Below are positions 2,473 through 60,200 of a stretch of DNA of 64,000 nt, piece by piece. A model generated the notes under the pieces. It made no database searches. It worked only from the letters and a program-made list of their open reading frames with translations, and was not told where the DNA came from. The stretch's first letter is position 1, and each line of letters starts with the position of its first letter. The position numbers were made by a program, and so were the translations under genes. The DNA comes from Dimorphilus gyrociliatus (lineage: Eukaryota; Animalia; Annelida): the NCBI GenBank assembly GCA_904063045.1, contig CAJFCJ010000037.1, positions 82,151-146,150 of the forward strand. Direction: 5' to 3'.

Positions 2473-2688
2473 CATCAGTATATGATAACACAATTTTGAT
2501 TAAAATTTGACATTTGCTCAGATTCACTGAAAGAAAGTGATTTAGGAATATCTATTGTTAAACAAACAGAATGTTGTAGTGAGCCTTCAATAACAATGAA
2601 TAGTTAAATATTTATAATAAACTGCAAAAATCCTTAAATGCTTTGAACAATCTGGATTACGATAGTTGTTTTTTAAATTCTGAGCAAA

Positions 2689-4068
2689 ATGTCGAGAATA
2701 AAAACAACAAATGGTTTGATGACTATTTGCAAAGGACTCAGATTCTCTTCAAATACATTAAAGATTCTTGATTTACGTTTGTGTGACTTAAGCGATAAAC
2801 AAGGGACAGAGATTGGAAAATTACTGGAATATTGTTGCAGAATACAAACAATAAATCTATGTGGTAATGAAGAGATGGATAATGGAATAATAAATGTTTG
2901 TGAAGGACTTAAAATGTCTTCAAGTACTTTGAAAAATCTTAATATACAATGGTGTAATTTAAATGAAGAACACAGTACAGAGGTTGGAAATTTGCTAAAA
3001 CATTGTTCCAGAATTGAAACAGTGAATATAAGTTCAAATAGAGATATGGGTAATGGTATATTAAATATTTGCCAAGGGCTTAAAATGTCATCAAATAGTC
3101 TGCGGAATCTGGATTTAGAATGGTGTAATTTAAATGAAGAACAAAGTAGGGAAATTGGAAAATTATTAAAACATTGTTTTAGTTTAGAACTAATAAATCT
3201 GTCTGGGAATGAAGGGATGGGTAATGGAATAAGGAATATTTGTGAAGGACTGCAAAAGTCATCTAACACTTTGAAAAGTCTTCTTTTCAATAATTGTAAT
3301 TTAAGTGAAGAACAGAGTAGAGAAATTGGAAATTTACTAAAAAATTGTACAAGAATAGAAACAATAAATTATTGTGGAAATGCAAATATGGGTAATGGAA
3401 TATTGGAAATTTGTATAGGACTGGAAATGTCAACATCTACTTTGAAAAATATTGATTTCCAATGGTGCAATTTAAATGAAGAACAAAGTAAAGAAATTGG
3501 AAATTTGTTAAAACTCTGTTGCAGATTAGAAGGTATAAAACTTTGTGGGAATACAAAGATGGATAATGGACTAATGAATATTTGTGAAGGACTTAAAATG
3601 TCTTCAAACTCTTTGAAGAATCTTGATTTGCTTGCATGTAACTTAAATGAAGAACAAAGTATAGAGATTGGTGAATTGTTGAAATATTGTTTTAAAATAG
3701 AAACAATAGGTCTGTCAGAGAATACAGAGTTTGGTAGAGGATTATGGAATATTTGTGAAGGACTCAAAATGTCATCAAATTCTTTAAAGACTATCATGTT
3801 TCAGTGGTGTAGTTTAAATGAAGAACAAAGTACAGAGATTGGAAAATTGCTTAAATATTGTTCCAGAATAGAAATAGTATTCCTATGTGGGAATGCAGAG
3901 ATGGGCAATGGATTTTTGAATATTTGTAAAGGACTCCAAATGTCAACAAATACTCTGAAGAAACTTGATTTAAAATGGTGTAATTTGAATAAAGAACAAA
4001 TTGAAGAGATTGAAAATTTGTTAAAACGTTGCATCAAAATAAAAGATAAAAACTTATTTGGGAATTGA
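2689..4068 (+). CDS. Ribonuclease-inhibitor-like / NLR-type leucine-rich repeat protein, about 8 tandem 57-aa (171-bp) units; may be a truncated fragment
   Basis: Intronless 459-aa ORF of units like NGIxNICEGLKMSSNTLKNLDLQWCNLNEEQSxEIGNLLKHCSRIETINLSGNxxMG (alternating 28/29-aa RI-type repeats). No NACHT domain or signal peptide is visible. Confidence 0.8.
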   Translation: MSRIKTTNGLMTICKGLRFSSNTLKILDLRLCDLSDKQGTEIGKLLEYCCRIQTINLCGNEEMDNGIINVCEGLKMSSSTLKNLNIQWCNLNEEHSTEVGNLLKHCSRIETVNISSNRDMGNGILNICQGLKMSSNSLRNLDLEWCNLNEEQSREIGKLLKHCFSLELINLSGNEGMGNGIRNICEGLQKSSNTLKSLLFNNCNLSEEQSREIGNLLKNCTRIETINYCGNANMGNGILEICIGLEMSTSTLKNIDFQWCNLNEEQSKEIGNLLKLCCRLEGIKLCGNTKMDNGLMNICEGLKMSSNSLKNLDLLACNLNEEQSIEIGELLKYCFKIETIGLSENTEFGRGLWNICEGLKMSSNSLKTIMFQWCSLNEEQSTEIGKLLKYCSRIEIVFLCGNAEMGNGFLNICKGLQMSTNTLKKLDLKWCNLNKEQIEEIENLLKRCIKIKDKNLFGN

Positions 4069-14151: not shown

Positions 14152-17100
14152 GACTGGTTTACAAATACCATGATTGTTACAATTTTTTGAAGGACTACAA
14201 ACTGGTTGTTCACACTCTTTACCTTTCCTTTCAGATAGACAAATACCATTGATGCCACACTGATTTCTGCAAGTACACTCACCAGATGGTGCCTCTTCTC
14301 AGCTCTGTCTATTGAACATTTAGAACATGGTTGGCAAGAACATAGCCCAAATATCAATCTAGATGGTGTTCCATCAGGACATATACATGGACAAGAATTA
14401 TATATGTCATAAATACTTTTTGCAGATCCATCAGGACAACAAAGTCAAGCTCCAGATTCATATTTATAACTAAATTCCCTTTTTCCATTTTCACATCTAC
14501 AAGGACACATACATTGTTTATTTTTCTTATTGTAGAGTCCATTTTTGATGTCATTGCCATATTGACCACATTTACAAATGTCATACTTTCTTCTCATTCT
14601 ACGTTCATAGTTGCTACCTTGGCTGAAATTTTGTAAATATTTTTTGTTTTTATTATCAAAATAGTATATATTGTAAAAAAGAAAACATTTACCTAAATAT
14701 AGGAAAGTCTTTCTTTATACAATTGATATAAAATATGTCTTTTTCATAAATAGAAAACCTATTTTTCCTTTAATTGTGATATCATTTAACATAACACTAC
14801 CAGTGTTTGCTTCTCTTTCATCACAAATATGTCCATCAGAGTATCCAGTTTTAATTTCTATTTTTTTATTTATCACCATATCCATTGATAGTTGATTATT
14901 TGTTTTTGTAGAAAAATTTTCAATTTCTATACCTGTTTATACATAGATAATTATAGGTAAAATATATTTACAATGATTTCTTTGATACTATACTTGCAAG
15001 CCAGTTGTTTACAGATTTCAATGATCCTTTTCTAGCAAAATATTTCAAGTTTTCATTTAATTTTTTAGATTTTATAGTATTTTTATAAAGTGGCCATTTT
15101 AGAGAAAATTTTGATTTAAATGGAATATTAACTTTTCCATATCCAATTCCATTTAATGCTGACATGCAAATTTTTCCTTTGCTTTTCCGCTATTGTCCTA
15201 TGATTGTCTAAATTTGTTTTGTTGTAGAAGATAAGTGAACTGTACAATAAACTTGAAAGTGTACAGTTCTTAGATTGAAAGAGAAAATTATCTCTTGATT
15301 GAAGAGTAACTGTTCCAACTGAAAATTCTGATGTAGATACTATACCAGGGAAATTAAAGCCATCAATTTCAAATCTAAATTGATAAGTTCCTCCTTAGAA
15401 ATATCATAGTTGATATAAATATCATGATTTATAGCCAAAGAAGATTTGAAATATTTAACACCATAATCAGGCAGGATTTTTATTTCCATTGTTGTTTGAA
15501 TTGATGAAATAGCCTTTGATACAATTGACACCTTAGCCACCTTTTTCTAATAATAAAATAAAGATAAAGGTTTATTACATTAATATTTCAGATTCTTATT
15601 CTTTTTAATTTCATTAAACACTTACATCTAGCATTACTGATGGTAAATTCTCTTGAATTGATAGCTCTAATTTATCATTAGAATTGGTTGAAATTGAATT
15701 AGTTTTTTTTGTAATTTGATTAAAATTTATATTAATTTCATCTAGAAGATTTGTCAATGAACCTAAATTGATTAATTCAATCATTTTCCATCCATTCAAC
15801 AAAGTTTTTGAATTAATTACATAACCAAGTGAAGTAGATACTTTTTGTCCAATAATGATTTTACCATTGTCAATAATATCATCTGTTTGTGAGTAGTATA
15901 AATTATGATTATTATTTTCTCCTCTGCAGTATAATTGATATGAATAAACTGGTATTTTGTCAAACTCTTCATTTTCAATATTATAATTTGAACAGTCTAA
16001 TAATGATGATTTTATAAACAAATCTTTATTAATTGTTTGATAAGAACTTTCAACTTTTTCTAGAAAACCTAAAGTATTTTTAACGATGACAACATCTTTT
16101 TTTTCAAATATCTCCGAATCTTCTACGATGATGTAATAAGATCGAAGAGATTCACCTTTATACTGGTACACTTCTCCTAAACATTTCATATTAATTTTCT
16201 TATCATTATCAATTATTTTCCCCTTGTCATTTGAATTTTGAAGGAATTTTGACAATTCATCATCAGATGGAGCCATATGTACCGTTTTCTCATCATTAAT
16301 TTTATTAAATTTACCATTTATTTTCAAATGAGCATATTTTAAATATATCCAATGGATTTATTACATGTGCAACCATTATTTCAAAATTTGATAATACTTT
16401 CATGCTGTTCAAGACTTCATGATGAATTCTATAATTCTTTCTACTTATTATAATATTTCCAACAGCGTTAATTACATCACTTCCGTCTTCTAGTACAAAT
16501 ATTTCATATTCATCGTTCAAATCACCATTTAATCTCTCATTGCTATCACATTTGTACAATGTTGAAGAATTGGGTATCTGAATAATGTTTTCCTTGAATT
16601 GAATGTCATTTAATCTTTGCTCAGAGGTCAAATCTGTATGTGGAAAGCCATCTGGGCATTTCTTTTCATTCCATACTCTACACCCAGTTTTTGTTTTTTG
16701 ATAACAATTATTAATGTCAATACATTGTTGACATACTTTATCAGCAGCACTAGAACAATAATGTTCAATACAATTAAATGATAATATTTGATTGGAACAA
16801 GAATTTGGCTTGATAGTAAGACAATTCCAGTAAAACCAATCAGGACAAGATCTATAAGGTAAACTAGGAGTTCCAGGCATACATCTTTGAGTAGAATCAC
16901 ACCATCCACAAGCATTTTTTTCTGTGCATTGTTTACAATTTGTATATCGTGGACATTTCGATATTGAACATCTTTTTCCATACCATCCTGGATCACATTG
17001 ACAAAAATTTGGACCAATACATTTTCCATGCTTATTACAATATCCAACATTTTTACATGTAATTTGAGAGCAATCAGCCTTTGTCCAACCAGAATCACAA

Positions 17101-25084: not shown

Positions 25085-25818
25085 ATGAAGTTGACTAAAC
25101 AGATTTTCTTTTTAATAAGCTTTGCATACTGTTTTATATCAGGTAAAGAGAGGGCAAGATTCATATCTTGTGTTGGTCTGTCTGTCTGTGTAGCTAAAAA
25201 TTAATTGGTCATTGTCTATTTTTAGTTGAAGGACAAGATCTTTTTGGATTTAGTGTCAACAGAAATGCAACCTTATTATCATGTTCTTGATCAATCTTGC
25301 TCTGCTGGAAGTGATATGAATATTATAAATGATGCTACAGTTGAGAAATGTTCAAAGTTTTGTAATGAGAACAAGCAATGTCTGGCTTTTTCAATCAATT
25401 ATGAGAGAAAGATATGCTGGATAAAGAATAAAATAAAGAGTACAACTCAATTTACAGCTACACCAAATAATGCATTCTTTCAGAAAGATTTCAAGCGTTG
25501 GTATTACATTCTCCCTATTATTCTTCTTTATTTTCCATTCTAATTTATTCATTTCTCCAACTAGTTATGCCAATAAATGGCTATACCAGAGTGGACTATT
25601 ATAGTATAAAGTTCAATACGGATATTGTTAAACATGATGGAAAAGATTTTTCAAAGTGTCCTAGTGAGTGTAATAGAAAGAGTTGGTGTCTTGGATTTAT
25701 CATTTACTATAGTTCATGCCGACTGATTAAAAGCCTATCTGAAAATTATCATAAGTTTGGCACACCATTATTTCTCAGTAATGCAAAAAAAAGCCAGTGG
25801 GAGAGTCTATTAAAATAA
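25085..25818 (+). pseudogene. PAN/apple-domain gene, pseudogenised paralog of 46634-47630
   Basis: Same signal-peptide exon as the paralog. A ~250-bp deletion removes most of exon 2 and the following intron, giving an early TGA; a further 1-nt deletion occurs near 25528. It lies within a duplicated block (~24640-26010 vs ~46135-47820). Confidence 0.8.
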
Positions 25819-29639: not shown

Positions 29640-29940
29640 TTTGTGTTAGCAGTGTATGACTGAATATCATAGGCAAACCTCAAAGTATATAAATCCTTGC
29701 TATTTTCATTCTATTCAATTGTATCTGGATCCAAGCACCTGGGAACAAACTCCTCTGGAGACAGTCTTTGGCAATCTGCTATTACAAATCATCTACACTG
29801 CTATTGAACTTTCACATTGTTATTTTCTCAAGTATTTCCATTTCAAATAAAACATTTAATTAAAACAATTGTTTAAAAGATTCGAGTAGAACCAGTACTG
29901 TTTTAACTTCCAAATACATAAATTGGCAAAGCACATCACG
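29640..29940 (+). mobile_element. Old truncated member of LTR family 1
   Basis: Shares GGCAAACCTCAAAGTATATAAATCC and TTCGAGTAGAACCAGTA with the 635-bp LTRs but is strongly diverged. Confidence 0.75.
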
Positions 29941-33731: not shown

Positions 33732-36725
33732 ATGAAATTTATCATTACAATTGTTTTTCTCTGTCTTCTCATTTCTCTAACAAAGTCTACTACTTGTAAG
33801 AATGTTCAATTTTCAGCTGTAACACCAGAACTATGCTCAATAAAAGCACATGAAATTCTAAATTGGATAGAGGATGATATGCCTCATACTATGAGAGAAA
33901 AGGCATATAGAATAGCAATGGAGTATTTCTCATCAAATCCAACATTTACTTTTTTAAATTTTTGACAAATTTTCCAAAATTATCTGCAAGATTTTAAATG
34001 TTAAATCATATTCAGAATTAAGTGAACAATTACTTTCAATTTTAAAATGGAAAATCTCCTCTGTGGACTTTACTCTTTCAATTCAGAAGGAATTGACACA
34101 TAGGAGACTCTATTTTGAAAATGATTACTTTCATAGAATTGTTGAAATGTTGAAAGAAATATTGAATTATCTCCGTGAAAATATTGTCAATGAAAATGTG
34201 AATAGAAAATCGAAATTTGTCAAGAAATTTAATGAATTGATAATATATATGAATTCAAAATATGGTCCAAATTGGTTGGGCGATATAAGAGCTTCCAGTC
34301 TATTTGATATATTTTTCAGGCGTTTTCGTTGTACAACTTTTGTTATATTTTACATGCTCGAACTCTATTATTTGATGCAACTTATACATGTACATCTTAA
34401 AACCAACGCAAGAAAATGCTATAACATTGGCCAAACATAAGTCTGATTAGTCAGCTTGAAGGCTCATCTTTAATTACCAATAAAGGTTTGGCCAAGTTAT
34501 AATTTAATTAACTTGCCTAGGGTGTGGCCAAGTTATAATTCAATTAACCTTCCTAAATGTTCAACCTTGTAACATCCTCTTACTAAACATAAATATGAAC
34601 TACACATTTCGGCAACTGTAAAGTGATGATTGGATGTCAGAGGCAAACCTCAAAGTATATAAATCCTCACTATTCTCATTTGGCATGCAGCTTCCATCTG
34701 GACCCAAGGACATGGGAAAATCATCTGGAAACAACCTCCACTGGAACCATCCATCTACTCCTCAACATTGGAAGACAGTTTGGTAATTTGGCAACCTGCT
34801 TTTACAAACTATCTACTCTGCTATCAAACTCTCATATTGTTACTTGCTTAAGTATTATTATTGTGAAAAAACCGTTTTAATTTAAACATTTGTTTAAAGG
34901 TTCGAGTAGAACCAGTATTGTTATAACTTGCAAACACATAAATTGGCCAAGCAAGAACAGTACATCGTCAATGGAAAACGGTTGATAATGTGAGAGAAGC
35001 TGTTGATGCAATAGCTGGTATCATATTTTTATAATAGATGCAAATTTATTCAAATTGAAGGCAAAATTTTCTTCCCTTCTAGCTAGATATTACAATATGT
35101 CTGATCCTAATAACAACTTTAGAGAGGAATTACTTCTTCAGGCTTATAATTTAGTAAAAGCCAAATGCAATAAACAAATTAACATTGTAATAAAGTCATT
35201 CGACAAAGCCTATAAACTATTTCAATACTTTTATAAAATTGGTGGATTTAACCTACCAATCTGCTCCTATGATGACATATTTAATAAAATGATTACTCAA
35301 TTCAAAGAGAATGAAATTCTGTTTGAAAAATTTTTATCATCAGAAGAAATTTTATTTTTTTAGAAAATTTTCTCATCACCAACAGATTTTAAATTAAACA
35401 GTTGCAACATTTTCCATTCACAAGATATAGGCAATTTCAATAATAGAATGGCTATGTATATTGGATTATCTAAGAAACATATAGAAAACTATGAAAGTGC
35501 ATTATCCTTTTATCTGCTTCCAACCAATTTGTATAGAAATACAATTAGGATTAGTGAAGATATTTTCTCATTTATGGCAAATACGAAAATACTTTTGGAA
35601 TGGCCAATAAAATTTCCACCAATAGAAATTCAAATGTTTTTAGATAGTTTATTAAATACTTATGGAGAAAACTGGTTGAAATATTTAGATCCTTTTAATC
35701 AGTTTGGTATTCATCATTTGAAAATGAATGGGGATATGAATGAAAAAGTCTCTGGTCTATTTATAGGTATTGAAAATGAACAGCAATTCTTCCAGAATAT
35801 AGGCCTATCAAGAAACCAAAAATTGCTCTATAGTATAAAAGCATTAAAAGATTTTCTATTTAATAAACAAAATCCTTTACTTTGGAAAAACTATATAAAG
35901 ATAACAAAAAACTTTTTAAGCATATATAATGGCCTTGAAAAGATTGATGTCTCTGACCTAATTACCACTCAACCAAAAAAATGTGATTCAAGCAACCATA
36001 AGATCATTGAAAATGTATTAAAATTTTGGGAAAAGAACAAAAATCTACTGAGAAATACTGTATTTCATCTACTTCAAAAACATTTACATTTTGAATTTCC
36101 TGCCAATGACATTGCCAAAAGATGGATTTCAGAGTTTTTCTGTATCATTTTAGAATCTTCAAATGAGGATTTTAAAATAAATTTGTATGGATTTCTTGGA
36201 ACGAGACTGGAATTTTTTCAACATGATATTATTAAGGTTATAGTTAAAATTGGTAATGGAAAGAAGGATGAAAAATTTGCTAAATCTATAAAAATATGGT
36301 CAGCCATTTTGGAAGGATATAAACAACTTGAAATAATGAAAGCTAATGGAGAGAATAAAATGGAAATTGTATCATTTGTTGAAAGTCAATTAGAAAATAT
36401 AATAAAATCATTTGGAGAGAAATGGACATCAGTATTGAATCCATTTAATCATTATATGTTCTCTTTTGACTATAGCTTCTCAGATTCATATTTTATAACA
36501 AAAGTGGCAAATTCTCTTGTAAAAGCCAATAACGCTTATGAATTTAATTCTAAAATGAATTTTCAACACTACGCCGCTGAAAATAGTCAAATAATATTCA
36601 ATATTCTTGAAAATCTAGTCAAACATGATTTAGGAAATATATGGGATTCTGCAAATGAATTTGAAAATCTTATTATTCAATTTAATCATACAAAAGTAAT
36701 GAAGAATTTAATTGAAATGCATTAG
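33732..36725 (+). pseudogene. Orphan secreted helical protein with three YGxNW-type repeats, disrupted by a solo LTR
   Basis: Signal peptide MKFIITIVFLCLLISLTKS. Removing 34330-34968 restores the frame (FRRFR/QWKTVDN). Additional stops at 33963 and 35361 and a poly-T frameshift near 35025. Confidence 0.65.
34330..34964 (+). mobile_element. Solo LTR, family 1 (635 bp), TSD TCGT
   Basis: TGTACA...GTACA ends; TCGT at 34326-34329 and 34965-34968; TATA-like GTATATAAA; near-identical to the 51117 and 59250 LTRs. Confidence 0.95.
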
Positions 36726-36765: not shown

Positions 36766-37940
36766 AGTACAACTTTTTATATATTTGATGTTTATACTAT
36801 GTATGCTACAATATACCACTTATTCAAAAACCTATGCCAGAAATGCAATTAATCATCATTTGGCCAAACTCAGACCTTGCCTGGTCATATTTTAGGTTCA
36901 TGTTTAAGTGCAACTCAAGGTTTGACCAAGTTGTGATTGATGAGCTTGTTGAGCATTTGGCCAAAGTATGATTAATTAGCTTTCTCATCTGTTCAACTTT
37001 GTAACATATTGTTCCTAGACCACCTACAGTGAAGTGATGATATGATATTGGAGACAAACCTGCAAGTATATAAACCCTAACTGTTTTACTCTAACTGTAC
37101 TACCTTGAACTGGAAAGATCAAATGGAGACAACCACTGGGACAAACCTTCTACCCTTTCAACATTAGACATTAGTGTACAACTTTGGTTATATTTTACAT
37201 GCTTGAACTCTATTATTTTATGCAACATATACATGTACATCTTAAAACCTACGCAAGAAAATGCTATAACATTGGCCAAACATAAGTCTGATTAGTCAGC
37301 TTGAAGGCTCATCTTTAATTATCAATAAAGGTTTGGCCAAGTTATAATTCAATTAACCTTCCTAAATGTTCAACCTTGTAACATCCTCTTACTAAAGATA
37401 AATATGAACTACACATTTCGGCAACTGTAAAGTGATGATTGGATGTCAGAGACAAACCTCAAAGTATATAAATCCTCACTATTCTCATTTGGCATGCAGC
37501 TTCCATCTGGACCCAAGGACCTGGGAAAATCATCTGGAAACAAACTCCACTGGAACCATCCATCTACTCCTCAACATTGGAAGACAGTTTGGTAATTTGG
37601 CAACCTGCTTTTACGAACTATCTACTCTGCTATCGAACTCTCATATTGTTACTTGCTTAAGTATTATTATTGTGAAAAAACCGTTTTAATTTAAACATTT
37701 GTTTAAAGGTTCGAGTAGAACCAGTATTGTTATAACTTGCAAATGCATAGATTTTGCCAGCAAGAGCAGTAAATTAGTTTGGTAATTTGGCAACCAGCTA
37801 TTACAAACTGTCTACTCTGCTATTGATCTTTTATGTTGTTACAAGCTTAAGTAGTTTATTTCAAGTAAACCATTTAAATTAAACACTTTGTTTAAAGATT
37901 CGAGTATAACCAGTACTGTTGTAACTTGCAAATGCATAAA
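36766..37940 (+). mobile_element. Old diverged family-1-like LTR split by a younger solo LTR
   Basis: 36766-37174 plus 37778-37940 rejoin into a colinear LTR-like sequence (GTATATAAA, TTTGGTAATTTGGCAACC, TTCGAGTATAACCAGTA). A small related piece lies at 50306-50370. Confidence 0.7.
37175..37773 (+). mobile_element. Solo LTR, family 1 (599 bp), TSD TTAG
   Basis: TTAG on both sides; lacks one 36-bp internal tandem unit relative to the 635-bp copies. Confidence 0.93.
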
Positions 37941-38549
37941 TAAGATTTAAAAAGTTGGTGTGGAAATAAAAAGAGAACTGAAAAAAGAGACCAATAGAAC
38001 CAAAAGATTATGACTTTGAAATAAATATGGATTTCATACTAGACAACTTTCTGAAGAAAGACATCTTTGAAAAGAATGAATAAAATTCTTATATTTGGAA
38101 CAGACTATCAGTTGAATTGTTGGGTAAATTGGGGTTATTGGTTTGTGGTCCAACATTTAAAATAGTAAAAGAACCATTTTACAAATAATTTTTGACCATC
38201 CAAAACTTAAGATTGATCTTAAGTGAAAACAAGGGGAACATGAAACATGTCCCACTGGCCTTCATTTTCATATCATCCAAATACAAGAGAGCTTATAAAT
38301 TGGCATTCTAAGCTTTAATAATTAATTACATTTTCAGTTTGTTAACTGTTAAACATATTTCCCATAGTCTATTAAGAAGATGATTAACATGTTAGAGCCT
38401 GAAAATGTCACTTTTAGATGATTGAATAGTCAAGTGAGCTCAAAAAGCTCATTCTACATGCTAGTTAATGAACTGAAAAGAGAGGGAGACTTGATTTTTA
38501 TCTCTGAAAACATGAAAAACAAAGTAAATGTATCCCAGAGAAAAAAATA

Positions 38550-43215: not shown

Positions 43216-43469
43216 AATTGAAAAAGTTTTTTAGATGTGAAAATAAAATCTGCCTATCAATATTGAATAGTATTGTTGTAGATTTAATGCTACTCTACGC
43301 AACAAGCAACTCTCCAACTTTTACTTTCGTTTTTGTGAATATTGGAATTAAAAAAATTTTAAAAATTTTAAAAATTTAAAAATTTAAAAATAAACTAATT
43401 ATCATTTATTTTAGCCTATAGTGTTTTATAAGAGTCATTCTATCTTATATTATTCATTTGCCATCCAAC

Positions 43470-44027
43470 ATGCAAAATTACGACAATTTAAAAAGAGATA
43501 TTGAAGAAAGTTTATTCTGTATTGAAATTAGAGTTTATCGAAAGACTAATGGTGTCAGACATGTTGGATTTGCTATTTTTATTGATAATAAATGGAAGTA
43601 TACCCTGGATTATGAGCCAGTTCATTATGTATTGGGACTGTTTGGGTCAAGAGCACATTTTGTAATAAATGTGGTTTCTGATGAACCTAGAAAAATGAAA
43701 ACTGATGGAGTACAACATAAATATACTAGAAATGAATATAAATGGAGAGAAAAAGCCTTATCTAAAATTGATGAGCTTTTAAAACCAATAAATAAGACTT
43801 ACAGACTTCTTAGTACTAATTGCTCAAATGAAATTAAACAAAAGTTAAATAATGATGATCCAGCTGGAAAGCAAATTCATAAAGAAGCAGCAACCATTCA
43901 CACAAGTATGATCGCTACTTCATTTGTTGCTCTCAGTTCGGCTGTAGTAATCGGTGCAGGAGTACTGATATCACATCTTGCAAAACAAGATAAAGAAAAA
44001 AACCCCAAACGTATCGCAAGGCGTTGA
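43470..44027 (+). CDS. Intronless permuted papain-like H-box/NC protein (LRAT/PLAAT/PPPDE-like) with C-terminal TM helix
   Basis: RHVGFAIF His box, YRLLSTNC catalytic Cys motif, hydrophobic MIATSFVALSSAVVIGAGVLISHL tail. ATG at 43470 (the ORF track starts at a TTG). Confidence 0.65.
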   Translation: MQNYDNLKRDIEESLFCIEIRVYRKTNGVRHVGFAIFIDNKWKYTLDYEPVHYVLGLFGSRAHFVINVVSDEPRKMKTDGVQHKYTRNEYKWREKALSKIDELLKPINKTYRLLSTNCSNEIKQKLNNDDPAGKQIHKEAATIHTSMIATSFVALSSAVVIGAGVLISHLAKQDKEKNPKRIARR

Positions 44028-46633: not shown

Positions 46634-47630
46634 ATGAAGTTGACTGTACCAATATTTTGTTTAATAAGCTTTGCATACTGTTTTATATCAGGTAAAGAAA
46701 GGGGGAGATTGAGTTTATTCATATTCTGTGTCGGTCTGTCTGTCTGTATAGCTAAAAATTAATTGGTTGCTTTCTATTTTTAGTTGAAGGACAAGATCTT
46801 TTTGGATTTAGTGTCATCTCTGATCAAATTTCATCATCAACCAAATTTGAAAAAATAAGAATCACTTTAGATAGATGTCTTCAAGATGCTGCCTTTAAAA
46901 ATGTTAAAGTAGTTGGCTATGATGAATCATATTGCTATTTTTTTTATGGAGGTAATGAGAATAATTTAAAGACCAAAAATAATGCTAAAACATATCTGAG
47001 AAAGAGTGACAGTAAGTCTATAAATATAAATTAGAAATTTTTAATATTCACTGTTGAAACCAACAAACAACAGAAATGCAACCTTATTATGACGTTATTG
47101 ATCAATCTTGTTCAGCTGGATATGATTCGAGAATTATAAATGATGCTACAGTTGAGAAATGTTCAAAGTTTTGCAATGAAAACAGTCAATGTCTTGCTTT
47201 TTCAATCAATTATGTGAGAAAGATGTGCTGGATTAAGTATAGAATTAGGAGTAGATTCACATTTACTCCTAGACCGAATAATTCATTCTTTCAGAAAAAT
47301 TTCAAGCGTTTGTATTACATTTTCCCTATTATTCTTCTTTTATTTTCCATTCTACTTTATTCATTTATTCCACTAGTTATGCCAATACGTTACTTTACCA
47401 GAGTGGACTATACAATTAGAATAATGAATTTTGATCAAGTTAGACATTCTGGAAAAAATTTTGCAGCGTGTTCCAATGGATGTAGAACTAGGAGCTGGTG
47501 TATAGGTTTTTCCATTTACAGTAATATATGCCGACTGGTCAAAACCATATCTTCACCTCGTCACCAGTTTGGCTCACCATTATTTCTCCTGAATTCGAAA
47601 AAAAGAGAGTGGGAGAGTAAATTACAATAA
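46634..47630 (+). CDS. Signal peptide + PAN-like + PAN + hydrophobic segment + PAN protein (~280 aa)
   Basis: Exons 46634-46691, 46784-47011 and 47074-47630 splice in phase 1. PAN motifs EKCSKFCNENSQCLAFS...CWIK and ACSNGCRTRSWCIGFS...CRL. Confidence 0.8.
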
Positions 47631-49249: not shown

Positions 49250-50110
49250 AATTGGTAAATGATTGGCAAGGACAATTACAGTTGTGACAAGCCAGAAATT
49301 TCTACAGTTACAATACAATAAAGTAAATTTTTTGAGCAATGTTTCAGCAGTTGGCCTATAATTTTACAATTTTCTTTGTTTAAATTACACTAAATAAAAT
49401 TTGTATCCTTCAAAGTGTTGGCAGATTGCAAAATTCCGTTGCAAATGTTGAATAATCCAAGTCCCTTCATTGAATTTCCACCTAGATGAATTGCAGTTGT
49501 CTCTAATAATGAGCTTTTTTTAAATAAATTTCCAACCAATCTGCTGTTCATCATTCAAATTACAACTAAAAAAATGACATTTTTTCAAAGTGTTGAATGA
49601 TCAAGTCCATTGCAAATATTAAAAAATGTATTGCCCATTGTTTTATTTTATCCCAGATTAATACTTTCAATTGTTGATGATTTTTTCGATAGATTTCCAA
49701 TTTTCATGATAAGCTCCTTTTCTAGACTGCAATTCTCCAAAGCAATATTCCCTGTTTGGTATGTAGAAAGTTGTAAAGTTTTCCAAATTATTCTCTATTC
49801 TTTCTCTCCAACACTTCTTTTCACATGGTAGTCAAGTTTGATGCATTTTTTTGTTTGCCTTATCAATTTGTTGACAGAAATTTTCTTATTGAATTTCCAA
49901 TAAATTACCAAAATCAACACTTGTCATCATGAAATTTGAAATTTTTCAACCCGGCTAACTACAAATCAAAAGCTCTTTCACTCCTGCTAACCATTATATA
50001 ATCTGAAATCTTGCTTTCAAAAATCTCAATTTGGGACATTTTCTGTGGTATTCAATAATATCTGGTCACCAAATAATTGGTTAGTTGTTTTTGTTTCATT
50101 TTTTGAGCAA
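49250..50110 (-). pseudogene. Decayed NLR-type LRR region
   Basis: IGNLSKKSSTIESINLG*NKTMGNTFFNICNGL...CNLNDEQ...GLFNICNGILQSANTLK...CNLNKENCKIIGQLLKHCSK, with stops and frameshifts. Confidence 0.7.
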
Positions 50111-51116: not shown

Positions 51117-51751
51117 TGTACTGCTCTTGCTGGCAAAATCTATGTGTTTGCAAGTTATAACAATACTGGTTCTACTCAAACCTTTAAACAAATGTTTAAA
51201 TTAAAATGGTTTATTCGCAATAATAATACTTAAGCAAGTAACAATATGAGAGTTTGATAGCAGAGTAGATAGTTTGTAAAAGCAGGTTGCCAAATTACCA
51301 AACTGTCTTCCAATGTTGAGGAGTAGATGGATGGTTCCAGTGGAGGTTGTTTCCAGATGATTTTCCCAGGTCCTTGGGTCCAGATGGAAGCTGCATGCCA
51401 AATGAGAATAGTGAGGATTTATATACTTTGAGGTTTGCCTCTGACATCCAATCATCACTTTTCAGTTGCTGAAATGTGTAGTTCATATTTATGTTTAGTA
51501 ACAGGATGTTACAAGGTTGAACGTTTAGGAAGGTTAATTGAATTATAACTTGGTCACACCCTAGGCAAGTTAATTAAATTATAACTTGGCCAAACCTTTA
51601 TTGGTAATTAAAGATGAGCCTTCAAGCTGACTAATCAGACTTATGTTTGGCCAATGTTATAGCATTTTCTTGTGTAGGTTTTAAGATGTACATGTATATG
51701 TTGCATAAAATAATAGAGTTCAAGCATGTAAAATATAACCAAAGTTGTACA
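51117..51751 (-). repeat. 3' LTR (family 1)
   Basis: TG...CA on the minus strand; about 13 substitutions versus the 5' LTR by manual comparison. Confidence 0.95.
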
Positions 51752-51752
51752 A

Positions 51753-51766
51753 CTTCCCCCTTCTTT
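51753..51766 (-). promoter_or_regulatory. Polypurine tract
   Basis: AAAGAAGGGGGAAG one base upstream of the 3' LTR on the minus strand. Confidence 0.9.
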
Positions 51767-51782
51767 GTGAAGGTGAGTCCCT

Positions 51783-54201
51783 TCATCTTGATTTAATGAG
51801 AATTACAGGTGGTTGTTCTTCTTCATTAGTTTGATGTTGACTAGAGCTACAACTTTGTTTCATTAGTTTTGGGTTTTCAGGAGAGTTATCTGTGCTCTCA
51901 CTTGGTGTAGCGGTTTCTTCTCTTTGTTTTCTTCTAATAATAATATAGTCGAAAATGATGATACATACCATTGACACTACAATACTCAAACAAATATTTC
52001 GTATGATAACATAAAGTGTTTTCCCAGGTTTATAGTACCAACTATGGAAAAACTGTTTAATTCCAGATAAATTGGGTACAATGCCATTTTTCTCTGCAAC
52101 AGTGACCATGTTATCATACCTTGCCTGCTTCTGTTCCAGTGAACTGATAACTTGCTTAATTTTTGAGTGCTGGTATGCAATATCCTTCTTTACCCATGGT
52201 GGAGTAGATCAGCTAATCTGGCAATTTCAATTTTTGGTTCAGAAAGGTGATTGTGGATATGTAACTGCATGGATTTTGCAGACACAGTGTGAAATCTGCA
52301 TCCTCTTTCTGAATAATACACATACATTTTGTCTTTCAGTGGTTGGTTTCTTATAGGATTTAATGGGTTGTGAGTTGTTTTGTAGAATAACTTGTTAGAC
52401 TTACACTCATTATAGGTAATCTCTTCAGGATTGACTTGCTGTAAAACATGAGTAACTGGTTCTACTTGGAAAAGCAGGTTGTTCATGGTGACAAGTAAAA
52501 ATTGAGAACATTTGTTATTCTTTTTTATCATGCTTAAGTCACAAACTACTTCTGTTGAGGCTATTGGTGAACATTGTTTAATTATAGCTAATTCTCCCAT
52601 CTGACTACTGTGCATTCCCAACTCATTTGTTAACACTGTGGTCAATTGAGGATCCAATTTGCTAGTAATGCCATCATCCTGCTTCTTTGAACAAATTGAT
52701 TGCAGAGAAGACTTGACAGCTGTTGGGTAAACTTTTTTAAATTCTTAAAATTTGAATCAATGCCATGTAGTAAGGTAGATGTTTGGGCAGCTTCTCTCAT
52801 TTCCAATGGGAATTTGTGATATGGGTTTTTACTTATATTATGTTTCAGTTTTGCTTCCTTCTTCATCTGCTTTTTAGCCATTCGCATGTGTAGAGTAAAA
52901 TAAATTCCTTCATGGGTAATCTTAAATTCTCTGGCTGGTGGTCCTTTATACCATATGCCCAATGTTGGTAATACCTTCTGTTTGATTCTTTTCTCACTGT
53001 ATACATATTTTGAAATTGTAACAGATTGTCTTGTTGCCCTTGTCCAATTGACTGCTTGCAGCATTTCTTGGATATAATAGTTATCCAGCTCCCAGTAAGA
53101 TGGACTAATGGGTTGCTGTAGATGATATATCACAACTTCCTTGAGTGTGCCTTTATTTCTCATTAGTTTATACTTTGTGTTTGTTTCTCTATACCATTGG
53201 TTAAGACTTGGTAAGGGGTTGTTTCACTTGTATAGTATAATTTGTTCTTTCACTTTATTGGGATAGTTTAATAGTCGTTTTTCTTCATTTTTTCCAATCT
53301 TCTGATATTGTAGCAAATTGTATAGGTGTTCCTTGCTTGTTTCCTGTATTGAACTCTGTTCCTCCAGTGATACTAATAGTTTTGTTCCAGGACCACCAAT
53401 TCCATCAATGAACTTATCTTGATAAGGGATGTCCAGAATAGAATACCCTGGACAAGAATAGTGACCAGCAAATTTGATACAACTAATTCTGTTGCTAATT
53501 TTTATCCATGGTGATTGTTGCCCCAGTGTGTAATTATTCTTGAGGTTTCTAAAGACAATAATTGCCTCTTCTGTCTCACAATAGGACTGCCCTGGTAAAC
53601 AATCTTCCAGGTAGTCCAGATTAATTGTAATTTTCATATTAGGAGGTTGCCAATATGCTTTGCCAAACTGGATAATTGTGGTGTATTCCAGCACCTTGGT
53701 AGTTGTTGGCCATGTATAGGCAGCAGGAAACTGATCTTGGTGGATCCAAGTGTTTCTTGTCACCATTAAAGGTTTTCCTTGAAAAGATTGTTTGTCTTTT
53801 ACCATCTGTCTGCATTGATCATGAGTTACTTTAATAACTGAGTTAACAATTCTCCTCTTCTTTGCTCCAAAGAAATAGTAAGTGTAACAATTAGTTCTTA
53901 GATACACTTGACATTTTACTGCTCTTGTTTCAATTTCTTCCAAGTTCAATTCATAGATATCAGCTGTAATTGTCTTGGTTTCTTGTGATTCTATATTACA
54001 AGTTGGCTCATCTGCTAGATCAAATGCCTGGCTTGGTAGTTGGTTAGAACAAAAGTATAACAGTGGTTTAAATGTTAAGGTAATGTTTGCACTTGTAACA
54101 TGTGCACCTTGGTAGGATGGTTTCGGAACTGTTATTGAGTGGATGCAGCCACAGATCACCATTACAGTCATCACTAGTGGAAGCCACAACATCTGTTTCA
54201 T
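51783..54201 (-). pseudogene. env: env: class III viral fusion glycoprotein-like (~800 aa), with 1 in-frame TGA and 2 frameshifts
   Basis: Signal peptide MKQMLWLPLVMTVMVICGCIHS; AVKC...NCYTYYFFGAK; DQCRQMV; AYTWPTT; LCNQF...LAKLDPQ...QMGELAIIKQC; KCSQFLLVTMNN...EPVTHVL; TM ICLSIVVSMVCIIIFDYIII. TGA at 53224-53226; shifts near 52660 and 52200. Confidence 0.75.
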
Positions 54202-54512
54202 GTTAGCTCTTCCTGTGTTGGCTATAGTTGAATTGTTGAAAATTTTGTGTTGTTGTTCCACTCTGATAGTTATTCCATCTTCTAACTCTATATATTGTGG
54301 TTCCACTTCTTGTTGGGAATCTAATTGTTCGGAGATGATTTTAGTCTCATCTAAAAATATGACTGACTCATTGTCTGTGTCACTTGTATTTTCTTTCTCA
54401 TCTTGGGATGAATCTACCACTATGAGGGACTCATTATCTGAATGGGTTATGTCAATAATTTCACCTTCAATAATTGTTGACTCATTATCAGAATGGGTTA
54501 TATCAATAATTT

Positions 54513-55775
54513 GGGTACAGGAGAAAACGTCCACTGGAGAAAACGTCCACTATAAAACTTCAAAGTAAGATATAAGATATTTGATAGATGGAGTTTTTAG
54601 GGCAATTTGACAGGAAAAAATGAATAATAAGAATTACAAATATTTAAATATTAATATATTGATTAAGTAAAAACAAGCGTTATAACAAGAATGATTGACA
54701 ACAGTGTAACAACATTAAAGAATAAAGGTATTTTAAACTGGTGAATAAATGTCAGAAGCTTTATCAAGTCCAGGGAGGTAATTGAGGCAATTTCAAATTG
54801 TTTCCATAAGCTGAATATTTTGCTCTGAATATTCTGATATGCTTTTCTTTGCTGTCTACAAATTTTCTTTTCACTCAGTAATTTTTTATATAGCTTTATC
54901 AGATCAGCTTCTCTTTTCAGTTCATCTAAAAGCAAATAGAATGCAGTGTTAGAGCAAAGATTCTTGTTAAGCCTGTGATGCCATCCTTCAAGATCATTAT
55001 TTGTCCTTATAGCCTCACCATAAACAGACCATACCTCTGGTTTATAAAATCCATTTATCCATTGTGTCTCAATGTACTCCAATAGAGACTTCATTTCAAT
55101 AGGACTTATTTCTTTAATAGTCTTAAATGTTGGTTCTATCAGATCAGAGGGCAGGAATGGTAATGCCATTAATTTCTTCATGATTCTATATTCAGCTTTT
55201 TTCTCCTTGTACATCTTACATAATCCTAATTCCTGGAAATAAATATGTCAGTTCTATCTAGACCTCAAATACTAAATTAAAGTATTACTTGAATCTTTCT
55301 GTATATTGCCTGTGTCCAGTGAAAAACACACCCTTTAATGTTTGCTTCAGGATAAGTGAATGATAGTGCTTTCCAAATAGCTTTTTCAAAGTCTACAACA
55401 ACTTTTTTGGGGCTATGCCCATTTGTTAAATCTTGTATTGCCTGTTAATTTAACAAATTAGATTATTCAATTTAAAATGCAAAATTATTGTACCTTAAAT
55501 AATTTCTTGTAGGCTGTCTTTCTCTTAGATCCCATAAAAGCAAAAGCCATTGGAATTTGTTTTATTTCTCCATTTTTTTTTATAAATCCATGAATAGAAA
55601 AAAGTTGATAAAAAGGGTCTTTCACACATTTAAATGTGCCATCCATAAACCATATTTTGCCTTTAGATAATAATTCAATTTGCTTTGTAGTTGAAAATAT
55701 TAGTATTCTATCATTCTCCATTTGTATATCCATTTGTAAAAAATCATCAGGAATAAAAAAATTTTGCTGGTGCCA
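54513..55775 (-). mobile_element. MULE transposase (5'-truncated, two introns) nested in the Gypsy element
   Basis: WFMDGTFK, VVDFEKAI, CVFH and RTNNDLEGWH motifs; introns 55493-55442 (52 bp) and 55288-55233 (56 bp); terminal 2 x GGAGAAAACGTCCACT at 54520-54551. Confidence 0.9.
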
Positions 55776-56713
55776 AAAAGAAGTTCCTGGGGTGGTAGTC
55801 TTGTACTTCCTACAGGTGATTGATTCAAAAATGCTTGAATCAAGGGTAGGTTTGCAACCCAGTTATGCTGATTTTCTTCCACCACTAATTTATTGATTTC
55901 CTTCCTCACTTCTCTATTTCTTCGTTCAACTAGTCCATTGCTCTGGCTTCTATAAGCTGTTGTTTGGATTTTCTCAATACCTAATACCTCCATAAACTCT
56001 TTAAAAGCTTTACCAACAAAGTTTCTTCCTTGATCTGTCAACATTTGTTTTGGAATTCCAAAAATGGGAAAAAATCTGTTGAAAAGAAGATTTGCAATTT
56101 CTTTACTGGTTTGCTGTTTGAGTGCATATAAAACTGTGTATCTACTGAAATGATCCACTATCACAAGTATGAATCTGTATGATTTAACCATGGGTAAGGG
56201 TCCCATTATATCCATGGCCACCAACTCCATTGGTGATGCAGGGTGAAAGGTTTCTACCAAAGGGTATACTCTACTCCTACCATTCATTTGTTCACACAAA
56301 GTGCAATCCTTTATTGAATTCTCAATCATAATCTTTAATTTTGGGTGCCAAAAGGTCTTTTTAATTATTTGTAATGTCATTCTGGGTCCATGGTGATTGT
56401 GAATTTTATTTTTATGGAATTTAGGGAGCAGAGTTAGCATCACATGGTCAGGTAAAACCAGAATGTTTCTTTTTTCAAGGATAATCCAGATCATTTCCTT
56501 ATGAACAAACATCTCCATTATGAAAGGTGTAAAAGTTCCAAAATAAGGAATAGGTAGCTGACCATCCAGTGTTAAATATTCTTTAATTGATTTCAAATTC
56601 ACATCTTTTTCTTGCTCTGACTGTAAGTCAACAGAAGACAAATCAATTTTCTCTTTACTGTTATCACTGGTAGCTACAAAAGTTAACTCTGGTGTATGTT
56701 CATACTGTTCCAT
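55770..56713 (-). CDS. pol: Gypsy integrase (zinc finger + rve core), C-terminus lost
   Basis: H-H...CTLC zinc finger; VAMDIMGPLP, VDHFSRY, LTDQGRNF, SNGLVERRN. Confidence 0.92.
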
Positions 56714-56809
56714 TTTAACTGAAATAGAGGGAGAATTCTCCTCTTTGATTCTTCCATGAATTAGCTCTTCAAATGTTACTTTCCTTGGGGGTGTATATTC
56801 TTCTAATCT

Positions 56810-57560
56810 TGTTAATGCATCTGCTCTATTTTTTCATCCTGTCACATAGTTAATTGTAAATTTTAAATCCATTAAAGCCATGACCCATTTTGCTGTGCTG
56901 ACATTCAATTTGTTTTGCTTAAATGTTTGTACTAGACTCTGATAGACTCTGATGTCAGTATATAAAAAGAATGGCTTGTCTTGAAGNNNNNNNNNNNNNN
57001 NNNNNNNNNNNNNNNNNNNNNNNNNNNNNNNNNNNNNNNNNNNNNNNNNNNNNNNNNNNNNNNNNNNNNNNNNNNNNNNNNNNNNNNTTAGATAAATTCA
57101 AACAAGCCAAAAGGTGTAATAAATGCTGTTTTAGACCTATCTTCTTTCTTGATGTTAATGTGGTGGTATGCACTTGTCAAATCCATGTAGAAAAGAATTT
57201 ATTTCCTCCTCCCAAATGGTCAAAAAGATCATCTTGATTTGGCATGGATACTTGTTTTAACTGTCATTTTGTTTAGTTTTCTATAATCTACACACATTCA
57301 TAGACTACCTTCCTTCTTTCTTACGAAACAATTGGTGAAGCCAATTGCTCTTGCTTGGTTGAATAACTTTGCTTTTTACCAATTCAGCTATCTGTTGCTT
57401 ACATTTTCTTGTTTTGAGGAGGCATTCTATATGGCTTTGTCTATATGGTGTTGAACCTGGTTCAAGAGTTATTTCCAAGGGTGGTACCTCTGGATTGCAA
57501 TATCAAATCTGTCTTCTGCAATAGTTTCTTTATATTTTGCCAGAATTTGGGTAACTTTGT
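56810..57560 (-). pseudogene. pol: Gypsy reverse transcriptase (5' part) and RNase H (3' part), frameshifted and interrupted by the gap
   Basis: KYPMPNQDDLFDHLGG...LTSAYHHINIKKEDRSKTAFITPFGLFEF; FFLYTD...KWVMALMDLKFTINYVTG*KNRADALTR. Confidence 0.88.
56987..57087. other. Assembly gap (~100 N placeholder) hiding the RT YxDD region and most of RNase H
   Basis: N run; the flanking motifs imply several hundred bases are missing. Confidence 0.95.
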
Positions 57561-57563
57561 TCT

Positions 57564-58040
57564 TCATCTCGGGATTTTCTTGTTCAATTGTTGTTGAAGG
57601 GTATGTATTTGACTCTCATTCTTTTTCATAATAAGAGGAACTGGGTAAAACCTTTGAAAGATAAGTGTTGTGTCCAACAGGTAATTCTTTTCTGTACCTG
57701 GCTGGAGTATAATCTGTCTCTTGCCAAAGTCAAGGGTAGCTCCATTTTGTTGTAGAAAGTCACACCCAATAATACATTGTTGTGTCATGATTTTGTTGAT
57801 CAGAAAGCGTTGTTTAATAATCTTTTCATTAAAATAAAGTCTGAGAATGATTTCTCCACATATCTCGATGCTATTTCCTGAAGCATCTCTAGCATTTTTC
57901 ACAGTTTGTTCTGGGAAGGATGCTTTTCCTTGAACTTGTCTTAATACTTTTTTGAAATGAAGATCTGTCACTACCAGAGTCTATCAAGGCATCAAACTTA
58001 AAACCAGTATTAGTTTCAAATTGTCCAATAAATGTTGAAG
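57564..58040 (-). pseudogene. pol: Retropepsin aspartic protease (frameshifted)
   Basis: FDALIDSGS active site (~57975-58000) and IIGCDFL motif. Confidence 0.88.
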
Positions 58041-58139
58041 CATTTCGCTCAGATTGTTTGCTTTGTAACAGCTGACAAGTGGATTCGTCACTATCTGAAA
58101 ACAGAGAATATCTTGAACTTCGTCGTTTTCTGACATGCT

Positions 58140-59189
58140 TTCATTGTCTAATGTTTCTAATTTTTGTAGCTTAGGTTCTCTTTCAGTATCGTCTTTGCTG
58201 GTTGATTTTTCTTATAATACCTATTTGTTGTAGTGGTGCATACTTTTGGACTTTTGGCTTGAAAACTTTTCTTTAGTAGCATTTTTGTTGTCAGGTACAT
58301 GCTTCTATTCCAGAAATTTGGGTTTCTGTAGAAGCATCTTTTCTGATTACTGGGTCTTTTTGGTCTTTTCTTTGTTGAGTTCCAATTTGACACCATTGTG
58401 ATCGGTTTTCTTGAGTTAGTTTTAATGAAGTTTCTGCTTGCTTAGCAGCCTCATATAGTTCTGCCAATGTTTGACATTTAGGATGTAAGGTGTACACTAA
58501 ATGTAGAATATCCTGTTGTAATCCTCTTTGTAAAACTCCATCAGTTTTATTTCTTTCATAGTTGCAAGCAATTGTGGTTCCATTGGTCTAGGTGGAGAAA
58601 ACCTCTTTATCAATTTCTTTGCTCTATTAACAAACTGAACCACACTTTCGCCATTCATTTGCTTTAAGTTAAGCAATTTCTCCTGATACTCCAAAGGATC
58701 TAGATCAAATTCGTCATGGAGGGCTTTCCATATTTCTCACAGTAGGCTCTCCATCCAGAGCCAACACCAAATCCTTTGCAGGACCAGTTAAATAATCTAA
58801 AAGATTTGCTTTCACAACATCTTCTCCTATCCAACCATAAGCATAACATGCCTGATTAAAGTCTTCTTTGAATTTTGAACACTCCTTGCTTCCATCATAC
58901 AACTTGAGAATAGTTCTTGAGGGCAGTCCCAAGCAGCCTTAATGCTTGAATTACTGTTGTGATATCAACATTTGGGTTCTGTGCTGGGTGATGTGTTCCA
59001 TCTCCATGATCTGTTGGAATTGTGATTCGATTTCTTTTCATTTCACTCACCAATCTATCATAGTCTTCAATTAGTCTTTGTTGCCTTTCTGACATTCCTG
59101 CTGGCTGAATTGTAATTGTTGGAGTTGCTGGGTTGAAGGGTTAGAGTCTGTAACTGCCCCAGTGGCGTTTCCATTTCCTCTTCTGCCAT
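58140..59189 (-). pseudogene. gag: Gypsy gag (multiple frameshifts)
   Basis: ATG at 59189; LYDG...FKEDF...YGW...LLDYLTGPAK and LLNLKQMNGESVVQFVNRAKKL retrotransposon-gag motifs; no clear CCHC knuckle. Confidence 0.8.
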
Positions 59190-59228
59190 ATTTACTTTCT
59201 CAAAACTTTTGAATAAACCAAAAGAATA

Positions 59229-59245
59229 TCCTGTCGACTGCACCA
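59229..59245 (-). promoter_or_regulatory. Primer-binding site, tRNA-Ser-like
   Basis: TGGTGCAGTCGACAGGA 4 nt after the 5' LTR; complementary to a ...TCCTGTCGACTGCACCA-3' end resembling GCAGTCG-initiated invertebrate tRNA-Ser. Confidence 0.75.
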
Positions 59246-59249
59246 AATT

Positions 59250-59884
59250 TGTACTGCTCTTGCTGGCAAAATCTATGCGTTTGCAAGTTATAACAATACT
59301 GGTTCTACTCAAACCTTTAAACAAATGTTTAAATTAAAATGGTTTATTCGCAATAATAATACTTAAGCAAGTAACAATATGAGAGTTCGATAGCAGAGTA
59401 GATAGTTTGTAAAAGCAGGTTGCCAAATTACCAAACTGTCTTCTAATGTTGAGGAGTAGATGGATGGTTCCAGTGGAGGTTGTTTCCAGATGATTTTCCC
59501 AGGTCCTTGGGTCCAGATGGAAGCTGCATGCCAAATGAGAATAATGAGGATTTATATACTTTGAGGTTTGTCTCTGACATCCAATCATCACTTTACAGTT
59601 GCCGAAATGTGTAGTTCATATTTATCTTTAGTAACAGGATGTTACAAGGTTCAACATTTAGGAAGGTTAATTGAATTATAACTTGGCCACACCCTAGGCA
59701 AGTTAATTAAATTATAACTTGGCCAAACCTTTATTGGTAATTAAAGATGAACCTTCAAGCTGACTAATCAGACTTATGTTTGGCCAATGTTATAGCATTT
59801 TCTTGCGTAGGTTTTAAGATGTACATGTATATGTTGCATAAAATAATAGAGTTCAAGCATGTAAAATATAACCAAAGTTGTACA
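59250..59884 (-). repeat. 5' LTR (family 1)
   Basis: 635 bp, TG...CA, TATA-like GTATATAAA, internal 36-bp tandem duplication. Confidence 0.95.
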
Positions 59885-60200
59885 ATAAAATAAGTTCCTT
59901 TAAATTTGAACAGTGATCTCTTAAATTTTGAAATATTTCTCTTTTAACATTTGACCCAATTGTATTGTTATTCAAATTCAGTTCTTTCAAATGTTGATTA
60001 CATTTTTTATTAAACAAGGAAGCAAAGCTAAACAATGGTACACTTTTGTAAAAGTCTTCTGTTCTTCTGAGATTGAATTCCATTGCATTCAATTTTTTGT
60101 CTGAAATTGCCTTTAGATTCAAAGTGTTTTCTCCAATGGCCAATTTCTTAAATATTTTTTAAATATGTTCTGTACAGGCACTCTTGAATTCTGTATCTGT
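59885..60200 (-). pseudogene. LRR gene fragment abutting the Gypsy 5' LTR
   Basis: KCNQHLKELNLNNNTIGSNVKREIFQNLRDHCSNLKELIL runs into the LTR; stops upstream. Confidence 0.6.

Follow-up and report, generated by a model that had tools for sequence, protein, structure and literature searches.

In the genome of the annelid Dimorphilus gyrociliatus, a stretch of 64,000 nucleotides (hereafter the window; contig CAJFCJ010000037.1 of assembly GCA_904063045.1, positions 82,151 to 146,150, forward strand) contains a series of interrupted open frames near a set of retrotransposon domains. This locus raises a key question: do the frames represent a single envelope (env) gene carried by a Ty3/Gypsy element, and, if so, is its product a class III fusion glycoprotein, and does the element belong to a lineage that has already been described? 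The reading that we hold with good confidence is that of a defective Ty3/Gypsy copy with a predicted class III env, likely belonging to the published Dingle family.

Structure of the element

The Ty3/Gypsy LTR element occupies window positions 51117-59884 on the minus strand, as do its parts described here, and its integrase, env and 3' LTR lie within one gap-free stretch. Both LTRs (5' LTR, 59250-59884; 3' LTR, 51117-51751) are 635 bp long with TG...CA ends and differ by 13 substitutions and no indels (K2P 0.021). A primer-binding site of the tRNA-Ser type (59228-59245) lies 4 nt past the 5' LTR, and a polypurine tract (51753-51766) lies ahead of the 3' LTR. The gag-like region (58290-59190), which has many frameshifts and no match in the Pfam search, was placed by position alone. 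It is followed by a frameshifted aspartic protease with an LIDSG motif (57564-58050; RVP, E 0.004, under the curated cutoff) and by the N-terminal part of the reverse transcriptase (RT), also frameshifted (57088-57500; RVT_1, E 5e-6, under the cutoff). An assembly gap of 101 N (56987-57087) takes the place of the remaining RT and most of RNase H. Beyond the gap are the end of RNase H and an integrase with zinc-binding and core domains and a lost C-terminus (55765-56986; Pfam Integrase_H2C2, E 3.8e-9, and rve, E 2.3e-13). The RNase H end upstream of the integrase was assigned by what we take to be its motif, and the fragment gave no significant match in the domain and structure-sequence searches. 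The pol order is that of protease, RT, RNase H and integrase, with RNase H mostly inside the N gap and known by motif alone. The heavy frameshifting of gag-pol in this copy may reflect true decay or assembly error.

Another important question is whether the polymerase is of the Gypsy or the BEL/Pao type. The best PDB matches of a 74-residue RT fragment were 4ol8 (E 8e-10) and Ty3-G Gag-Pol 7q5b (E 2e-9), in a set of PDB matches that contains no named BEL/Pao RT for contrast. The fragment aligns with Ty3 RT over the motifs VDYRxLN, DLxSxYH and KTAFxTP, which we take to be Ty3/gypsy signatures, the contrasting BEL/Pao signature being likewise our assumption. The best PDB alignments of the integrase were with foamy virus integrase and Ty3 Gag-Pol integrase. 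Judging from the sequence, pol is almost certainly of the Gypsy type, as originally predicted, and the RT and integrase matches (rve, Integrase_H2C2 and Ty3 Gag-Pol) bear this out. We consider it extremely improbable that the element is a BEL/Pao retrotransposon carrying a gB-like env of the Tas or Anakin kind, given the alignment of the RT fragment to Ty3 RT through Ty3/gypsy-type motifs, a solo LTR with a 4-bp target duplication, and scanned fragments in which no BEL/Pao-specific Pfam family was found; what favors it is that the comparison set lacks a named BEL/Pao RT and that, according to the available text of PMC13524379 and PMC9094657, BEL/Pao elements are known bearers of gB-like or chuviral glycoproteins.

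On its plus strand, the window also contains a pair of solo LTRs from this family, one at 34330-34964, with 96.5% identity and a perfect 4-bp target-site duplication, and the other at 37175-37771, with a 36-bp internal deletion. In the target-site duplication of the full element, three of the four bases agree. Moreover, the 5' LTR interrupts an ORF resembling leucine-rich repeats (59853-60158, minus strand), which is not resumed by the sequence past the 3' LTR. Because of these two features, the element halves on either side of the N gap may be separate insertions. Older LTR relics of the same or related families (66-85% identity) were found at 1483-1760, 29651-29924, 36767-37085 and 37776-37941.

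The remainder of the window contains several other features. An open frame at 2677-4068 (plus strand) encodes at least seven leucine-rich repeats of 171 bp (57 residues), and a broken paralogue of this frame (49330-49800, minus strand) lies close to the 3' flank of the element. Duplicated blocks extend over 23.5-26.8 kb and 40.5-49.0 kb and include paired small genes (25471-25818 and 47058-47630), the second of which has PAN domains. A 1002-codon open frame at 11290-14298 (minus strand) combines VWD with many EGF and cadherin domains and probably has a membrane anchor, with further EGF and PSI exons upstream. Finally, a 201-codon ORF at 43422-44027 (plus strand), for which no Pfam match was found, shows a His...Tyr-x-x-x-x-x-Asn-Cys pattern that, in our assumption, resembles that of permuted NlpC/P60 (LRAT/PPPDE) enzymes.

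The env gene and its breaks

The env gene runs on the minus strand from an ATG at 54201 to a stop at 51783 (2419 nt, ~ 806 codons) and is broken by an in-frame stop (53224-53226) and by 1-nt frameshifts near 52655 and near 52192. According to models and fold searches, piece 1 (53227-54201) comprises a predicted signal peptide, a class III fusion domain that bears two aromatic loops, and a predicted PH-like domain. Past the in-frame stop, piece 2 (52655-53223) contains, as indicated by homologue matches, most of an insert of ~ 150 residues and then the predicted start of the central helix. Piece 3 (52193-52654) is a Cys-containing stem region that is conserved in the homologue alignment, and piece 4 (51783-52192) consists of the membrane-proximal region, a transmembrane segment (hydropathy 2.69) and the cytoplasmic tail, with 47% identity to the natural protein P0002. 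Upstream of the ATG, an acidic stretch remains open in the env frame (54202-54512; 104 codons, 24% Asp+Glu).

Do these pieces belong to one gene? P0002 aligns successively with pieces 2, 3 and 4 (71, 63 and 47% identity, respectively), and the proteins P0004 and P0005 both do so with pieces 1, 2 and 3. Since P0002 spans pieces 2-4 and P0004 and P0005 span pieces 1-3, we conclude that the pieces form a single gene. The original prediction had joined four ORFs into one protein of ~ 800 residues by repairing one stop and two 1-nt shifts, and both the positions of the pieces and the homologues that cross the breaks in one frame agree with it. In a chance control, none of 500 base shuffles attained the 441 codons of the longest open stretch, the best reaching 190.

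The other sequence features expected of this protein were largely recovered. The N-terminus is hydrophobic (19-residue hydropathy 2.07), as is a C-terminal segment (2.69), and these hydropathy values alone account for the predicted signal peptide and C-terminal transmembrane segment. The ectodomain contains 15 Cys (9+1+5), matching the ~ 15 spaced Cys proposed. The motifs YYFFG, YTWP, GELAIIKQC, LLV.MNN and EPVT.VL were all found, but LAKLDP occurs in no single frame because the string spans the first frameshift. In comparison with P0004 and P0005, env has ~ 150 extra residues (roughly 293-438) where the PH-like domain gives way to the predicted central helix, and this insert parts domains II and III. 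It includes an R-x-x-R motif, and our guess is that this part of the insert is a cleavage loop.

Env homologues and other copies of the element

An exhaustive search of 1.84 billion protein sequences (E up to 0.001) yielded nine matches, eight of which are real homologues; the other, P0011, is an unrelated repeat protein and was set aside. Pfam Rhabdo_glycop_FD matches four of the nine proteins, one of them above the cutoff. Six positions (C75, F88, G90, C108, W142 and P143) are invariant across nine aligned sequences, and relatives of env with open frames have identities of 43-71%. A word-indexed protein search with env recovered one relative among 2508 candidates and none among 3125 longer candidates, and its profile version returned only a query member. 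No named protein was present among the listed members of ten homologue clusters. Searches beyond protein collections gave no relatives of env among 272 pattern matches in metagenomes, no related locus for P0008 in viral contigs, and no related sequence among 21 integrase matches in viral contigs; one of 238 integrase matches in metagenomes was related, being a distant Gypsy fragment without an env ORF. The P0008 cluster itself has four members on contigs of 7.4-9.6 kb, which may be RNA viruses or retroelements, and includes a full-length, 631-residue distant homologue of env.

Are the breaks in env a property of the family or of this copy? Approximately half of the sampled env words were present in five of six listed sequencing runs, and none of the runs listed was an RNA library, which has no bearing on expression. 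Contigs were compared for four of the six runs, with the qualifications that contigs collapse copies and that one run may be the source of the window itself. In the contigs of X1, X2 and X5, which come from two studies, env is covered at ~ 98% identity, and none of the three break sites, i.e., the stop and the two frameshifts, reads as it does in the window. Since these contigs are free of the lesions, the breaks are a property of the window copy or its assembly, and env is a property of the family. The presence of env in these contigs and in the homologues also speaks against a captured host gene absent from other family copies, an objection that the original prediction had itself raised. Run X6 provided short, diverged pieces only; they are AT-rich, and C>T and G>A differences are strongly overrepresented, which would fit a bisulfite library.

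The same contigs bear on the region between integrase and env. In the window, a truncated fragment of a Mutator-like (MULE) transposon (54513-55758, minus strand; ~ 1.25 kb; Pfam MULE, E 5e-4, under the cutoff) separates the two. In the X1, X2 and X5 contigs, which run from integrase into the env region, the Mutator piece is absent, and 1089 other bases take the place of the 1252-base stretch of the window (joint 54512-55765). One Mutator end lies at 54513, the other end is absent, and contigs with Mutator sequence run on beyond 55758. We infer an insertion followed by an adjacent deletion; an assembly chimera is possible. According to the available text of PMC7854359, the host genome of the published element Dgyr_errantivirus_1 also has Mutator elements. 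Thus, env does lie upstream of the polypurine tract, as proposed, but the intervening Mutator-like fragment means that it does not directly follow integrase. With the 1089-base length of the other copies, env shares the integrase frame, behind the 104 open acidic codons, an arrangement that chance alone would give one time in three. Given the three breaks in env, the frameshifted gag-pol and the Mutator fragment that replaces the integrase end, the window copy cannot work alone.

Evidence for a predicted class III fold

The four env pieces matched no Pfam envelope family above the cutoff, a single-sequence PDB search with env gave no matches, and the ESM Atlas gave no usable match for piece 1. 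A profile of 11 homologous sequences, in turn, matched four PDB glycoproteins (E 0.002-0.006), including rabies G (7u9g and 8a1e), and in the profile alignment, the FFG and WP of env line up with the two rabies G loops. In the structural model of piece 1 (mean pLDDT 66; block means mostly 72-94 over residues 51-230, with one block at 68; below 60 beyond residue 240), FFG caps a long hairpin, and WP is in the loop that follows. All 39 rows listed by Foldseek against the PDB for this model were glycoproteins of the gB, thogotovirus or vesiculovirus kind, the lowest E being 1.4e-6, with TM-scores against solved gB of only ~ 0.3.

An additional piece of evidence was provided by VIA-align, a fold search independent of Foldseek that covered 48,161 chains. 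Ranks 1-11 were all class III proteins (gB, vesiculovirus G, thogotovirus GP, rabies G and GP64; Z 10.0 to 4.8), and the first unrelated row had a Z of 3.5. The match to gB with a Z of 10.0 had an rmsd of 7.8 over 204 residues, and that to prefusion gB (Z 7.3) had an rmsd of 3.5 over 123. The alignment of model residues 52-273 with gB 141-449 includes the PH-like domain flanking the fusion domain, where pLDDT falls below 60 past residue 240. Among predicted viral structures (BFVD), the top matches were G proteins, either from rhabdoviruses or rhabdo-like (E 7e-9), and a chuvirus-like protein came tenth; of the 50 rows listed, none was named an F protein, and five were nameless. In the same database, the uncharacterized entomopoxvirus proteins W6JPK9, A0A916P111, Q9YVZ3 and Q9EME2 match the class III models obtained here (E about 1e-6 to 1e-7), on account of which these poxviruses may carry a class III-like glycoprotein.

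For the C-terminal half, where class III fusogens have a central helix and a crown domain, a model of homologue P0005 was used, which is of low confidence (329 of 548 residues with pLDDT below 50), and some of its gB alignments reach residue 429. Could the product instead be of the F type, a class I protein resembling baculovirus F in which the fusion peptide follows a furin site, or a chimera of F and G? With P0002, the ESM Atlas returned clusters partly labelled Baculo_F (0.93-0.94; family share 12-43%, recognition flagged weak) and a Fusion_gly cluster (0.87), and a weak GP41 match was obtained near the membrane anchor (E 0.004). Against this, the Atlas recognition is flagged low, P0002 has no Pfam Baculo_F match at E up to 1, three fold searches place the N-terminal half in class III, and P0004 and P0005 hold both halves in one chain, with the P0005 alignments to gB just mentioned. 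The Baculo_F lead for P0002 (0.94), flagged as weak and without Pfam backing, was rejected, and we regard an F-type or chimeric protein as very unlikely.

The models make it nearly certain that the N-terminal piece of Env adopts the predicted class III fold, the C-terminal half being modelled with low confidence. The proposal of a class III fusogen is thus upheld for piece 1 by Foldseek, VIA-align and the profile, with both loops at fusion-loop positions, and was left unconfirmed by fold for the C-terminal half. Env would have in common with the class III fusogens of viruses (herpesvirus gB, rhabdovirus G, thogotovirus GP, baculovirus GP64 and chuvirus-like G) a fusion domain of elongated beta structure that bears a pair of aromatic loops and precedes a predicted PH-like domain, but the sequence identity to env is only 4-17%. 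By sequence and predicted structures, the nearest viral proteins are the G proteins of rhabdo-like and other negative-strand RNA viruses.

Relation to published elements

These data raise a further question: is the element new? The original prediction suggested an uncharacterized lineage, which does not hold, as gB-type Gypsy elements have been published (PMC7854359 and PMC13524379), probably including this family. A literature search on Dingle retrotransposons in Dimorphilus returned PMC7854359 alone. The available text of that paper (2020) names Dingle, the Dinophilidae Gypsy-like elements of the Ty3/gypsy type, as an abundant family with disrupted copies whose gB-like gene lies 3' of integrase and whose env resembles the gB of CMV and HSV-1 by HHpred and modelling; ten env peptides were aligned, and the name 'Dingle-1' is used. 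Compared by description and not by sequence, Dingle and the window element share the Ty3/gypsy LTR backbone and a gB-like gene downstream of integrase, the window copy being defective.

A 2026 survey (PMC13524379, likewise cited from its available text) finds Ty3/gypsy elements with a gB-type env from across the animal kingdom, with 1512 elements in its methods and 221 occurrences of ENV_HSV in its first table, i.e., about 220 gB-type elements. Row 15, Annelida_Polychaeta_Dgyr_errantivirus_1, is the one gB-type row among ~ 74 annelid rows (148 matches, two per row) and has a gag-pol-env order and seven near-identical copies, with the listed copy intact. One of its LTRs is 635 bp and the other 630 bp, and its primer site lies 4 nt past the LTR. 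Its primer-site 12-mer occurs in 26 table rows, the other 25 being insect F-type elements, and is given as tRNA-Ser in 25 of the 26; the window site is one letter off, and the X1 contig has the exact 12-mer at a loose end. The LTR-to-LTR spacing differs by 815 nt between the window element and the published one; going by the Gypsy relative L001, the N gap should account for ~ 720 nt of RT-RNase H, which is a rough fit. The survey names Dgyr_errantivirus_1 as a chromodomain outlier, and its chromodomain site falls in the stretch that the Mutator fragment replaces in the window copy. Thus, gag-pol-env order, gB-type env, LTR length, primer-site offset and a compatible length are shared, and the differences are the intact state and chromodomain of the published copy, the Mutator fragment at this place in the window, and one letter of the primer site.

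On these grounds, it is likely that the window element belongs to the published Dingle family and corresponds to Dgyr_errantivirus_1. This match is based on LTR length, primer site and spacing rather than alignment, and so a sister family of gB-type Gypsy elements, distinct from the listed one, has to be weighed; the ten aligned env peptides and the name 'Dingle-1' (PMC7854359) suggest that Dingle subfamilies may exist. Since four independent measures fit the sole annelid gB-type row of ~ 74, as far as the available table goes, we consider a sister family unlikely and retain the assignment to Dingle and Dgyr_errantivirus_1.

The BEL/Pao Tas element and the mosquito chuvirus-G elements, the latter reportedly described by Dezordi et al. 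as BEL/Pao elements with a chuvirus-G env, are, as far as described, LTR retrotransposons with a class III env like the present one, but the pol of the window element is Ty3/gypsy-like instead. In nematode BEL/Pao elements, the Tas env is gB-like and the env of the Cer kind is phlebovirus-like and class II (PMC9094657, available text); of the background to the original prediction, gB-like BEL/Pao env therefore stands, but not the inclusion of the Cer elements. The Drosophila errantiviruses gypsy, ZAM and Idefix share a Ty3/gypsy backbone with env, but their env is F-type (PMC13524379, in the part available).

The original prediction also proposed an independent capture of the fusogen, which the data do not show; the available text of PMC13524379 argues for an ancient origin and rare recombination. 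A separate capture of env from a rhabdo-like or related negative-strand RNA virus would be in keeping with the lone annelid gB-type entry, the chromodomain-outlier pol and the lineage-specific insert of ~ 150 residues; the protein would then arise by read-through or fused to Pol, given that env in the other copies is in the integrase frame behind the open acidic linker. We regard this scenario as doubtful.

Proposed role of Env

If class III fusogens and Drosophila gypsy are a guide, Env in working copies would enter the secretory path, trimerize and coat budding Gag particles. Once these are taken up, Env would put both loops into the target membrane, probably at endosomal pH, and its refolding, as in class III fusogens, would lead to release and delivery of the capsid. 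The direction of transfer would most likely be from somatic cells to the germ line, as in Drosophila gypsy; Drosophila errantiviruses are the model for soma-to-germline spread in the available text of PMC13524379, which also says that it is unknown how gB-type elements enter cells.

Does Env, then, serve extracellular spread? The analogy inclines us toward this role. Alternatively, and less probably, Env could be kept for local cell-cell fusion or as a passenger, with the element spreading inside germ cells. In the text of PMC13524379 that was available, no activity or particles are described for any gB-type Gypsy env, and herpes gB is said to depend on partner proteins, but the closest viral folds of the window Env include the single-component rhabdovirus-like G proteins. 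Moreover, the open env frames in the family contigs and in relatives (43-71% identity), together with the invariant loops and cysteines, suggest selection for a fusion function, and a role of Env in extracellular spread remains the reading that we prefer.

The kind of element, and probably the family, was thus described in 2020 and 2026, and the window copy adds confirmation and two anatomical details, i.e., the insert of ~ 150 residues and the frame shared by env and integrase, small details that are without mention in the available text (figures aside) of PMC7854359 and PMC13524379. For asking whether gB-type envelopes let invertebrate Gypsy elements pass between cells, a recently active family in a small genome would be a good test case.
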